A stretch of DNA of 64,000 nt from Octopus vulgaris. Its lineage: Eukaryota. The stretch is taken from NCBI GenBank assembly GCA_951406725.2, contig OX597823.1, positions 104,842,001 to 104,906,000 on the forward strand, in the 5' to 3' direction. Shown piece by piece: positions 2,848-64,000 of this stretch. The notes beneath the pieces were generated by a model. The model was not told the DNA's origin, made no database searches, and worked only from the letters and a program-made list of their open reading frames with translations. Every line of letters begins with the position of its first letter. Position 1 is the first letter of the stretch. Position numbers and translations under genes: made by a program.

Positions 2848-3060
2848 TCCTTTCTACTATAGGCACAAGGCCTGGAATTTTTGGGAAAGGAACAAGTCAA
2901 TTACATCGGCCCCAATGTTTCACTGGTACTTAATTTATCGACCCCAAAAAGATGAAAGGCAAAATCAATCTTGGGGGAATTTGAACTCAGAATGTTAAGA
3001 TGGATGAAATGCCGCTCAATATTTTGCCTGATGTGCTCACGATTCTGCCAGCTTGCTGTC
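2848..3060 (-). mobile_element. SINE family B (ggtgagctggcagaa...ttgcctttcatcctttcgggg)
   Basis: Matches copies at 40208, 61118, 61356 and 63888. Confidence 0.7.
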
Positions 3061-3094
3061 TTAATAATAATGGTAATAATAATAACAATAATAA

Positions 3095-3712
3095 GATGTC
3101 TGTTTTCATGCTGACAGAAATTGAATGGCTTGAATGGAGGTGGTGAGCTGGAGAACTGTACAATGCTCCAGTCATCTGTTTTGGATTGGTTTCTATGGTT
3201 GGATGTCCTTCCTAATGCCAACCACTTCACAGATTGTACTGGATGTCTTATATGTGTCACCATCATGGGTGCCCCTTTATGTGTCACTGGCACAAGTGCC
3301 CTTTTATGTTTCACGAGCACAGGTGCCTTTTATGTGTCATTAGCATAGGTGTCTCTTATGTGTCCCTGGCACAGGTGCCCTTTTATGTTTCATGAGCACA
3401 GGTGCCTTTTATGTGTCATCAGCACAGGTGTCTCTTATGTGTCACTGGTACGGATGCCTTTTATGTGTTACTGGCACTGGCTATGACCATGGTTCCACTT
3501 AGCTTGACATGTTTTCTCAAGCACAGCTAATTGCTGGAGGTTTTGGTCACTTCTCATCACCTACATGAAACTCAACAACCAAAAGCAATTTTTCACCACT
3601 TTGTCCCATGTCTTCTAGTGTCCACCCTTCCACAGGTTCCCTCCACAATTAGAGACTGGCACTTCTTTACACATCTGCCTTCATCCATATGTATCACATG
3701 ACCATACTAGCA
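3095..3712 (-). mobile_element. RTE LINE 3' end (ORF C-terminus plus UTR)
   Basis: Minus strand reads YGHVIHMDEGRCVKKCQSLIVEGTCGR; the UTR contains a ~26-bp degenerate tandem array at 3250-3480. Confidence 0.75.
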
Positions 3713-48809: not shown

Positions 48810-49113
48810 TCACCGTGACCGACCAGGCTATAAAATGTTGCTACACATCACTGGTCACAATGCGTTTTGCATTGTTTTAGCCTTCAAATGATGCCACTCC
48901 GCTGGCTAAGCAAGCAGGCCAACAGAAGAAAGAGTGAGAGAAAGATGTGGCGAAAGAGTACAGCAGGGATCGCCACCACCCCCTGCCGGAGCTTCGTGGA
49001 GCTTTTAGGTGTTTTTGCTCAATAAACACTCACAACACCTGGTCTGGGAATCCAAATCGTGATCCTACAATTGCGAGTTCGCTGCTCTAACCACTGGGCC
49101 ATTGCGCCTCCAC
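48810..49113 (-). mobile_element. tRNA-derived SINE family D
   Basis: Closely similar to 7683-7977. Confidence 0.8.
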
Positions 49114-49407
49114 TATATATAATATAGTGAGTTGAAAAAACTGATTTACTGAGATCATCCATGCAACTAGTAGAAGGATCCCCCCCCCAAGGTAGGGGTG
49201 CTTGAAATCTAGAAAAAACAACAAACAAGGTGATTAGCTTCAATGAAGTTTTTCAAAATTGAATTCAGTGGCTGATAGTTGTGGATTTTGTCTTTAAAGG
49301 CATTTGAAGCAAAAAATGGGCTGCAGATTCAGTGCTGTTACATCTCCCCAGAAAAGTATATTCTATGCAGTATGACTTTTAAATGATCAAAATGTGTGTG
49401 TTGTGTG

Positions 49408-55980: not shown

Positions 55981-56310
55981 GATTAAACTACAGATCCTTC
56001 TGTAGGAATTTGTTGCTCTATAACTCACGTGGATGGACAGGGGAGATGCAAAGCCTCATTCGTACGTTTTGAATTCGTTAGTACTGGTGGTCGAAGGTGG
56101 TTTGTCTGAGGTTACTCAAATCAGACAGGTATGTTCGATTTTTAGTGCTCTCAAATTTAAATTTAACGAAATCTTGGGCTGATGACGCTCGAAATGTTAA
56201 ACCCTCCTTCTTTCCTTCCTTCCTGAGCGTCCAATAATACTATATTTGTTCCACGTCCTCGCGTTGTTGTGTTTTCTCTTTGTGTTTTCATGTTTGGATT
56301 AACTTATACT

Positions 56311-56402
<92 letters not shown>

Positions 56403-56406
<4 letters not shown>

Positions 56407-57820
56407 AAATAAGAAAATGGAGAAATACATCCAAATCAAATATCGACTACCAGATAATACCCAATCACATACTTTATTAAACCACCTCATAAGAAACTTT
56501 AAGGTCAAACATAATAATATATGACAAAACAGTGTACATAAAGAAGTAATATGGTACAATAAGTACAATATGTATAAGAGAATGCGGATGTATGTGTGTG
56601 TGCGTGTGTGTATAAATGTCGGCACAGACAACTATACCTGGTCGAAGTGCGTTGTTATCACGGGATGCATGATTGAGGTGACACCGTGTATTTCGTGAGC
56701 GGGTTGTCTTGTCGCTGGAACTTCTATGTCGTTGCATTTCTGCTGGGCCGGCGCAGGCATGGGAGGATTGTGCCAACATTTGTGCACACACCCACCCACA
56801 CGCGCATGCATCCGCATGTGTCCATAGATGTTTGTGCACTCTCATGCGCTGTGTCTGCAAACGTTCACATATGCATGTGTGCATATTTGGGTGTGTGTCT
56901 GCATGCTCATACGTGTGGGAGGGACATGCACATGTGTGTCCACCCATGGGTGTACTTGTGCATGCGGGGACATACATGCACGTACGTATACATGTGGACA
57001 CGTTTCGACGTGTCCACATGTATTTGCTGGATTGCAAGGTGTGTGTCTGCCCATGGGGGGACGTATGGATGGGCCAGCACATGCGTGGGAGAACCGTGCC
57101 AACATTTGTGCATGCACGCACACACACACGCACGCGCATCCGCATGTATCCGTAGGCATTTGTGCACTCTCGTGCACTGTGTCTGCGGGCATTCACATAT
57201 ACATATGCATGTTTGGGTATGTATCTGCGTACTCATACGTGTAGGAGGGGCATATACATGTGTGTCCACCCATGGGTGTGCGTATACATACAGGGGCATG
57301 CATGCACATACATATACATATGAGCACATTTCGTCATATCCACATGTATTTGCTGGATTACAAAGTGTATGCCAGCCCATCAAGGGACATATGAGTGGGC
57401 CAGCACAGGTGTGGGACAGCTGTGCCGACATTTATACACACACGCACACACACGCACATCCGCATTCTCTTATACATATTGTACTTATTGTACCATATTA
57501 CTTCTTTATGTACACTGTTTTGTTCTATATTATTATGTTTGACCTTAAAGTTTCTTATGTGGTGGTTTAATAAAGTATGTGATTGGGTATTATCTGGTAG
57601 TTGATATTTGATTTGGATGTATTTCTCCATTTTCTTATTTTGTATTATGAATTTGTGGTAAAACACTTTACCTTTGCCCCTATAGTACAGTAAATGAATT
57701 AATTGCATCGCAATTCTTAACATTTATGTATTAACTTTGTTGGGTACTTCACTGGCAGTATATTGGATATATGTTATCCCATGGAGGGTTGCATTTACAA
57801 CCCCTATCTCAATTTGCAAC
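56403..57820 (+). mobile_element. (TA)n-embedded non-autonomous element with 225-bp inverted arms (56403-56627 / 57420-57644) and 326-bp tandem units
   Basis: The arms differ at about 6 of 225 positions; units start with gggcc at 56745, 57071 and 57397 (partial). Confidence 0.85.
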
Positions 57821-58665
57821 TATATATATATATATATATATATATACATACATATACAATGGGATTCTTTCAGTTCCCATTACCAAATCCACTCACAAGG
57901 CTTTGGTTGGCCCAAGGCTATAGTAGAAGACACTTTCCCAAGGTGCCACACAGTGGGACTGGACTTTGAACCATGTGGTTCGTAAGCAAGCTACTTACCA
58001 CACAGCCACTCACTTTAGGTTGGCCTCATTAAGGACAAAAATCACACCAGCAAATGTTCTGTCTTAAAAAATGACAAAAATAAATCCAATCCAATTAAAT
58101 TTCTTAATTTAGATTTTGGTGGCCGTTAGTTCTAAAACATTTCTTCAGCTGTGGCATTGCTTGATGGTACACTGCAAACGGTCAATGCACATTCTGATAA
58201 ATATGGCAATGCAAGTTCATCTGTTGCTGTTTCTGAAATTACCAACTGATCAACAAAACTGAAAGGAGAGCTGCAAAAGATTGTTTGAATATGATTTAAC
58301 CATTTAGAGAAAATGTTTTAATCTTTTGAAGGGTTTCTATATTTCTAGGTCACACAGTTCAAAAGTTCATTACATATCCATCTCAAAACACTTAGACCTG
58401 GTTTTTGCTTATAGCATTTTCTTGGGAAATTTATCTTCATGAAATTTTACTGGTCATAAAGTTAGAAAATGTTTATTTTAAGTGTATTTTTCTTCATAAG
58501 GAAAGAACTGTGATTTAATATCTAAATTCATTTCAGGATTCACATATTGAAAATATGAAATTCCTGTAAATGTAGACAATGCAAAACAGCATAATCAATT
58601 TCAGATATTACTGTGACCCACAATTACTTTTTGTGAAAAAGTAATTAACTTTTTCTAAGTTCCCT

Positions 58666-61117: not shown

Positions 61118-61570
61118 CAAGGCAGCAAGCTCAGCTCGTAGGACTGTTAGTACACTGGGAAGAATTCTTAGGGGCATTTCATCTGTCTTTATGTTCTGAG
61201 TTCAAATCCTGCTAAGACTGACTTTGTATTTCATTCTTTCAGGTTCGATAACATAAGTACCAGTTGAGTTCTGGGGGTTAAATAATCGAACTAACCCCTC
61301 CCCCAAAATTGCTGGCCTTGAGCCAAAAATTTGAAACCAGTATTAATTCCTAAATCAAGGTGGTGAGCTAGCAGAACTGTTAGAACACTGGGCAGAATGC
61401 TTAATGCACTTCGTCCATTTTTATGTTTTGAGTTCAAATTCTGCTGAGATCAGCTTTGCCATTCATTCTTTTGGAGTTTAAAAAATAAGTACCCGTTGAA
61501 GACTGGAGTTGATGTAATCAACTTACGCACCCCCCTGAAATTACTGGCCTTGTGCCAAAATTTGAAATCA
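61118..61570 (+). mobile_element. Two tandem SINE family B copies
   Basis: The ttctgagttcaaat...aagtacc...ggccttg.gccaaaatttgaaa unit occurs twice. Confidence 0.7.
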
Positions 61571-61699
61571 ATATGAATTCTCAAATAATTCAGGAACATT
61601 TTTCATGACTTCAGTAGTTTTGCTTTTAACAGAAATCAACCCAAAAACTGTGATTCAATTCTATTTTGCTATTTCTTATAATCTCTAGCACATACAAAT

Positions 61700-63887: not shown

Positions 63888-64000
63888 ATAAGGCGGTGAG
63901 CTGGCAGAAACGTTAGCACGCTAGGCGAAATGTTTAGCAACATTTCGTCTGCTGCTATGTTCTGAGTTCAAATTCTGCTGAGGTCGACTTTGCCTTTCAT
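63888..64000 (+). mobile_element. SINE family B 5' part, running off the window
   Basis: ggcggtgagctggcagaaacgttagc...gtcgactttgcctttcat. Confidence 0.75.

Follow-up and report, generated by a model that had tools for sequence, protein, structure and literature searches.

The stretch of Octopus vulgaris DNA analysed here (64,000 nt, hereafter the window) holds, at 56402-57820, one insertion of a 5'-truncated Penelope-like retroelement, and along about 800 nt of this insertion 47% of the A have become G on a single strand, the + strand. The best explanation, to which a probability of roughly 0.88 is given, is that ADAR edited duplex RNA and that a reverse transcriptase then copied the inosines as G into germ-line DNA. 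A-to-I editing is usually taken as never reaching DNA; the coleoids, the group of the octopus, are known for heavy editing. The ADAR reading alone jointly explains (i) the restriction to one strand; (ii) the neighbour context; (iii) the stop of the changes near a junction; (iv) the flipped changes shared by the two arms of the insertion; and (v) the bursts on the sense strand of SINE copies. A hyper-edited RNA written into the genome had already been proposed in a preliminary description of the window, and it is now supported by the one-strand spectrum, the ADAR-like 5' pattern and independent contigs. The window copy itself is most likely inert and without function, i.e., a record and not a working device.

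When 56623-57464 was scored against its four closest relatives (at least three of the four agreeing), 156 of 334 A read G and 3 of 212 T read C; its 806 scored positions also hold six C>T, five G>A and six transversions. With a wider reference of 22 loci, the figures become 162 of 339 and 6 of 212, respectively (Fisher p 9e-35). In the four-relative scoring, G>A affects 5 of 70 G and C>T 6 of 190 C, which is not the sense-strand G>A excess of APOBEC-type editing. GC-biased conversion and repeat-induced mutation were rejected because they would be strand-symmetric, and errors of the diversity-generating retroelement type because they would add transversions.

Most of the changed sequence is a tandem array with a period of 326 nt and 2.2 copies (56744-57458). 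Its first two units had been aligned by hand, leaving aside a CA tract, with about 47 A/G mismatches, 5 C/T mismatches and 5 transversions. A formal alignment of unit 1 (56744-57069) with unit 2 (57070-57395) agrees: 50 A/G, 6 C/T, 7 transversions and 4 gap columns in 328, so that the balance between A/G and C/T that would speak against editing is absent. The G is in unit 1 at 33 of the A/G mismatches and in unit 2 at 17, close to the private G estimated by hand (about 32 and 15). Since both units depart from the family (71 of 132 A changed in unit 1, 54 of 130 in unit 2), their mutual comparison reveals only 50 of the approximately 156 changes. The changed tract extends from about 56640, in a 116-nt stretch to the left of unit 1, to about 57427. 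The open reading frames across it are low-complexity frames.

Because the open reading frame and the tail of the element define its sense strand, the window can be read as an inverted arm, antisense spacer and units, a junction at about 57464, a sense tail, and an extension up to about 57820. The left arm (56402-56627, - strand) repeats in inverted orientation the 226 nt that precede the first 3' end, of which 182 nt are the tail and 44 nt belong to unit 3; the arm begins on a (TA)n tract (56316-56404), the likely insertion target, and family copies also end on (TA)n. The spacer (56628-56743, + strand) is an antisense piece of the 3' untranslated region of the element, and the segment 56623-56743 has 22 of 45 A changed to G, the first at 56640. 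Units 1 and 2, both of 326 nt on the + strand and antisense to the element, are followed by a partial unit 3 (57396-57464, + strand, also antisense) which ends at the antisense/sense junction. This partial unit had been thought to keep its A; actually, its first 30 nt or so are also changed (9 of 27 A in the unit, nearly all before 57428). The sense 3' tail (57464-57645, + strand) has 0 of 41 A changed, and the sense extension past the first 3' end (57646-57820, + strand), present at the right end only and found in many family copies, has 2 of 53. A second (TA)n tract (57821-57856) forms the right end. According to the alignments, the left arm overlaps at its end by 5 nt (56623-56627) with the native sequence next to the spacer, and two cDNAs were likely joined there. 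Native copies have the spacer and units on the strand opposite to the window's arrangement, about 1.2 kb from the tail.

The changes are confined to the antisense segment and leave the tail nearly free: tail and extension together have A>G at 2 of 94 A and T>C at 2 of 158 T. Even the margins of the segment are under-changed, with 1 of 6 A in the first 20 nt or so (3.4 expected) and 1 of 12 in the last 35 nt or so (4.2 expected). Between the inverted arms (56402-56627 and 57420-57645) there are 6 differences in 226 positions, as estimated earlier (about 3%). Changes at 57422, 57424 and 57427 recur in the left arm as T>C at 56625, 56623 and 56620, and both arms have the same junction. As these three flipped changes are common to both arms, they must already have been in the template before the arms were formed.

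This layout is also relevant to a deamination at the DNA level, in which ADAR or another adenine deaminase would have acted on the cDNA strand of an RNA:DNA hybrid while the inverted segment was first being made. The changed strand, being antisense to the native element, has the polarity of cDNA, and the tract matches the inverted segment with its quiet margins; furthermore, ADAR can act weakly on RNA:DNA hybrids. Nevertheless, the cDNA of the tail would be an equally good hybrid and has just the 2 T>C in 158 T given above, and other inverted segments of the family were not flagged by the screen described below. TadA-like enzymes prefer a 5' pyrimidine, whereas in the window a 5' A is as good as a 5' T. 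Deamination of cDNA is thus improbable, and it is weakened by the SINE copies, whose changes are on the inferred RNA strand. A shade less probable still is a polymerase origin, in which a reverse transcriptase put dG opposite U under scarce dATP, or a Y-family polymerase (eta, iota) put dG opposite T in the second strand. An A that follows A or T is a favoured site of polymerase eta as well, and HIV reverse transcriptase hypermutates U>C in vitro when nucleotide pools are biased. But the tail of the same molecule is faithful in both directions, the rate of change falls near the antisense/sense junction, transversions stay at background level, and the flipped changes common to both arms were made before the arms; the 3' G preference of the SINE copies is, in addition, an ADAR trait.

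The direction of the changes was established by comparison with the family. The other units compared have 19-30 G each in 20 of 20 cases, and the two window units have 98 and 81. Between unit 1 and the family copy L070 there are 70 G/A sites and 7 differing sites of any other kind. Moreover, identity to the best copies reaches 97-99% over the last 182 nt, but in the unit region it is only 66-80% to any other copy, a deficit almost wholly due to window G against the A of relatives. When A and G are treated as one letter, tree building places the two window units inside a young subfamily clade with a support of 0.997. Since 20 of 20 other units carry A and the window copy nests in this young subfamily, G is the derived state, as had been proposed. 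The opposite direction, with the window copy retaining many original G that G>A changes, APOBEC-like or due to CpG, removed from the rest of the family, is very improbable. The family is indeed poor in G on the + strand (19-30 G in about 300 nt), but it is A-rich on that strand instead of showing the G-rich consensus that such a history would leave; both subfamilies carry A, the private G differ between the two units, and equal losses would be needed in every lineage.

The changed bases appear to be in inherited DNA, judging from contigs of sequencing runs labelled as four organisms. Sequence words of the tract are found in contigs of 13 runs from seven studies with four organism labels, and 8 of the 24 entries listed were compared. 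Single contigs span 56620-57427 in the runs X1, X5 and X7, with 5, 17 and 19 differences, and 153, 152 and 152 of 155 changed sites, respectively, read G in them. A contig of X4 covers 56620-57397 with 16 differences plus 16 gap letters, and one of X13 covers 56620-56942 with 7 differences. Altogether, part or all of the tract is present at 97-99% identity in seven runs from six studies (X1, X2, X4, X5, X7, X10 and X13) with four organism labels, where the comparison is one of contigs and not of raw reads, the runs are presumed to be DNA or of unrecorded kind, and X1 may be the source sample. The demand for DNA support made in the preliminary description is therefore answered by independent contigs that carry the G, at the level of contigs and not of reads. 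An assembly or sequencing artefact could be suspected from the position of the locus between simple repeats and from the use of contigs instead of raw reads; nevertheless, it is extremely unlikely, as the seven runs come from six studies and each shows a few variants of its own. As for transcripts, no RNA run was listed with the tract, and one presumed-RNA contig (57056-57294, depth 2.2) was not taken as expression.

The changed A are not a random sample of the A of the tract. With the 22-locus reference, the proportions changed in the core are 71 of 105 after T, 51 of 77 after A, 27 of 95 after C and 4 of 12 after G, that is, 122 of 182 (67%) after T or A versus 31 of 107 (29%) after C or G (p 3e-10). 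On the 3' side, 54 of 81 A followed by A were changed as against 99 of 208 with other 3' neighbours (p 0.004), and both effects persist in a joint model. According to the accessible parts of the literature, ADAR favours 5' U and A and disfavours 5' G across metazoans (PMC9989829), a 3' A is favoured in invertebrates (PMC5625713), and the 5' neighbour is the strongest influence on ADAR (PMC3113232). The window's pattern of 5' neighbours and 3' A fits these published preferences. The ADAR signature anticipated earlier was found as regards the preference for 5' T or A over C or G; its depletion of 5' G is weak here, the rate after G (4 of 16, four-relative reference) being about equal to that after C (26 of 112) on few G sites, and far weaker than in the SINE copies. 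The 3' G sites (7 of 14 changed) are too few to weigh. CpG decay masks few changes after C, since CA>TG is seen at 6 sites versus 21 for CA>CG, too few to explain the gap.

In addition, G shared by both units had been taken as a possible trace of an earlier round of editing and retrotransposition. They number 40 versus 34.7 expected from the trinucleotide context (p 0.014), a small excess that a site-specific preference could produce. Tandem units are also present in unedited family copies, no family unit is G-rich and, as the tandem units predate the event, no earlier editing round is needed; this proposal was rejected.

The window copy is not the only case of its kind. In 15 copies of a SINE-like family, far commoner than the Penelope-like one (59 copies in a 600-kb blind sample), A>G affects 174 of 741 A and T>C 2 of 569 T; the repeats beside these copies are symmetric (A>G 67 of 2147, T>C 59 of 2075), and 104 background SINE copies have 0-5 changes each. 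A search with one edited SINE copy led to 39 other places, 40 of 1188 candidates being scored; with a cut of at least 7 A>G in 220 nt, 13 of the 39 pass and 26 fail (among them L241 with 6 and L208 with 5). The 15 copies are hence those found among the 40 of 1188 scored candidates plus pattern matches, and not a genome-wide total. A sense pattern with four forced G matched two SINE copies and the antisense forced-G pattern none, numbers too small to count alone. The changes seem to be on the RNA (sense) strand, as deduced from promoter-like boxes and a short-repeat tail; ARAGORN found no tRNA in the SINE, and its own fold is not notable (z -0.63).

The neighbour context of the SINE changes is of the ADAR type: 2 of 141 A were changed after G, 15 of 83 after C, 99 of 207 after A and 72 of 124 after T, and on the 3' side G is enriched (63 of 148, versus 21 of 88 for T). 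Since the set was picked with an edited query, the pooled context is biased towards the query's sites; at the sites left unaltered in the query, the counts are smaller but point the same way (17 of 56 changed after T, 27 of 178 after A, 9 of 98 after C and 1 of 139 after G). No two of the 15 patterns are alike and, of 253 site pairs, 190 fail the four-gamete test. This speaks for separate events, and descent of these copies from one edited master was accordingly rejected. The burst is mostly limited to the 3' half and reaches the 5' half in L222 (about 1348-1566, turned; 10 of 32 A) and L209 (1240-1570). The core of L245 has five T>C and no A>G, perhaps as a subfamily variant or through an opposite-strand change.

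Regarding the identity of the element in the window, longer copies lead upstream to a broken open reading frame with a YRDD motif (L061) and then to a C-terminal GIY-YIG-like piece. The nuclease piece scores 0.95 to clusters of which 35% are PF01541, and both the reverse transcriptase and the nuclease pieces match one protein of 803 aa (P0002); the named homologues of the element's protein come from Octopus. Pfam gave no match on the reading-frame pieces, and searches in Rfam, ARAGORN, Pfam and PDB sequences yielded nothing useful. The nuclease is continuous with the units in L038, L159 and L192, the reading frame being upstream of the tail on the same strand. Family copies are 5'-truncated, often tandem or inverted, and end on (TA)n with the extension at one end. 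EN+ Penelope-like elements are described as having a reverse transcriptase followed by a GIY-YIG domain, 5' truncation, an inverted 5' copy, a one-sided extension and (TA)n targets (PMC8557442), and the anole Penelope enzyme cuts and extends both strands in vitro (PMC11167929). By the order of reverse transcriptase and GIY-YIG, the truncation, the tandem and inverted copies and the one-sided extension of the tail, the element can be assigned to this EN+ group; its placement in a Neptune-like clade, from a cysteine cluster and the (TA)n targets, is a guess. The window copy resembles Penelope elements in the presumed priming on both strands, the (TA)n, the 5' truncation and the inverted 5' copy, but it differs from those described in its extension of about 175 nt (not 30-40), its internal antisense segment and a hammerhead that was not confirmed.

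Several observations on this family can be added. Two 3' ends about 175 nt apart are found in it (window 57646-57820; L070, L068 and L063), whereas described tails are much shorter, 30-40 bp. In L030, the tail is preceded by a motif that resembles a hammerhead but has a non-canonical core (z -1.9; Rfam without match). Internal 5' inversions with deletion, in LINE-1 style and beside the usual inverted terminal copy, are frequent and were seen in L151, L156, L186 and L192; as these inverted copies were not flagged by the screen, inversion alone is not mutagenic. L034 contains, at 2966-3096, a near-perfect palindrome of two opposed partial family copies. Five near-identical family copies lie among zinc-finger genes at 6.9-10.3 Mb of G000:C28 (L049-L053) and are probably segmental duplications. 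At 56100-56315 of the window, the 3' end of another repeat, with a minimal hammerhead-like core at about 56179-56194, adjoins the left (TA)n; it possibly belongs to a second Penelope-like family with the same target.

For the editing of the window copy by ADAR, the following course is proposed. A parent copy with a 5' inversion, in which antisense spacer and units were joined to a sense tail, would have been transcribed. Its antisense part would have paired in trans with sense RNA of the family, which has about an even chance, or formed a hairpin within a tandem array since lost, which is somewhat less favoured; in the same model, the sense tail would have stayed unpaired. ADAR would then have acted on the duplex. 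Finally, the element's enzyme would have primed on both strands of a cut (TA)n, and two cDNAs of unequal length, both started at the 3' end, would have been joined at the 5-nt overlap. Since no parent was located, the whole may also have happened in one event, by a template switch onto edited antisense RNA. The preliminary description had remarked that the changed part is the loop and not the present arms, so that its partner must have been elsewhere; this partner would likely have been ordinary sense RNA of the family, with which the loop, antisense to the element, could pair.

The search for the parent used an exact, A/G-tolerant junction pattern, which matches, genome-wide, the window locus only; on the chromosome of the window, the closest family copy detected, L163 at a distance of about 148 kb, has no units. 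No duplex partner of the edited segment was found. The 60 matches to the tract include no other edited copy (40 of 42 candidates were scored and 30 loci retrieved); patterns with forced G for the tail and middle, partly of uncalibrated sensitivity, gave no matches, and none of 94 matches to an unforced antisense pattern had at least three G. A screen for A>G or T>C clusters in 172 sequences (1.15 Mb, 326,899 scored positions), which took in 60 blind 10-kb stretches and 60 further family loci and left about 8 of the 94 antisense-pattern matches outside, flagged the window tract alone.

Capture of ADAR edits by reverse transcriptase is already known in proviruses and LINE-1 insertions. Clusters of ADAR-type A-to-G changes are reportedly found in HTLV-2/STLV-3 and avian RAV-1/ALV proviruses, and larger surveys of APOBEC editing of retroelements are said to exist. 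In the BLV 3' LTR, such A-to-G clusters span about 70 bp with seven or more changes (PMC8025556). As far as these accounts go, proviruses resemble the window in that one-strand A>G clusters were fixed after reverse transcription of edited RNA, but they are viral, mostly somatic and short, whereas the window has a non-viral retroelement in an invertebrate germ line. Among LINE-1-made pseudogene insertions in cultured human cells, ADAR edits were captured in 3 of 235 (PMC11702581). There, as in the window, clustered A-to-I changes were copied by a non-LTR reverse transcriptase into chromosomal DNA; nevertheless, those insertions are described as somatic and induced, the changes being confined to inverted Alus in mRNA 3' untranslated regions, and the window tract is inherited across four organism labels, derives from the element's own RNA, and comprises 800 nt at 47%. 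One study found no editing in LINE-1 RNA itself (PMC5224506).

ADAR is also reported to hyper-edit repeat RNA in metazoans, including octopus, sense-antisense duplexes being a known substrate (PMC5625713; PMC9989829); these are the same A>G clusters in repeats, described there in RNA only, whereas those of the window are in DNA. In APOBEC editing, G>A changes derive from deamination of cDNA cytosines, in LTR elements (PMC2873906; PMC12548423). Both are deaminase bursts in a single retroelement copy, detected against family members, but the changes of the window copy are A>G, have an ADAR context and are limited to a region in which duplex RNA could form. For one mouse provirus that was a candidate, the ADAR context was lacking (PMC12548423). 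No report of inherited ADAR bursts in non-viral retroelements was found in the literature covered, mostly openly accessible and largely titles and abstracts, without supplements.

Taken with the 15 SINE copies, the window locus indicates a route from RNA editing to heritable mutation. It would imply (i) that ADAR acts on the RNA of retroelements in the germ line or in early embryos; and (ii) that these reverse transcriptases can read through heavily inosinated templates. In general terms, we incline, with some reserve, to regard ADAR as a recurrent germ-line mutagen of octopus retroelements: many loci in several families would be fossil edited RNAs, some of them edited as sense-antisense duplexes between different copies, the genome would hold a datable record of ADAR activity and specificity, and editing would not block insertion. 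Each copy would be a single-molecule editing record, datable by species comparison and, in consequence, genome sequences could be used to test questions on germ-line editing, on ADAR as a transposon defence and on the insertion mechanism of Penelope elements. Copies of this kind would also distort age estimates of repeats and the calling of editing sites.

Two further kinds of feature were observed. The window contains, at 61143-61580, a tandem duplication of 232 nt (1.9 copies, 76% identity). Furthermore, weak C>T or G>A clusters were flagged in the window at 48961-49130 (9 of 12 differences) and 63921-63980 (6 of 8), and in L090 at 771-890 (13 of 20); they are probably due to CpG decay.
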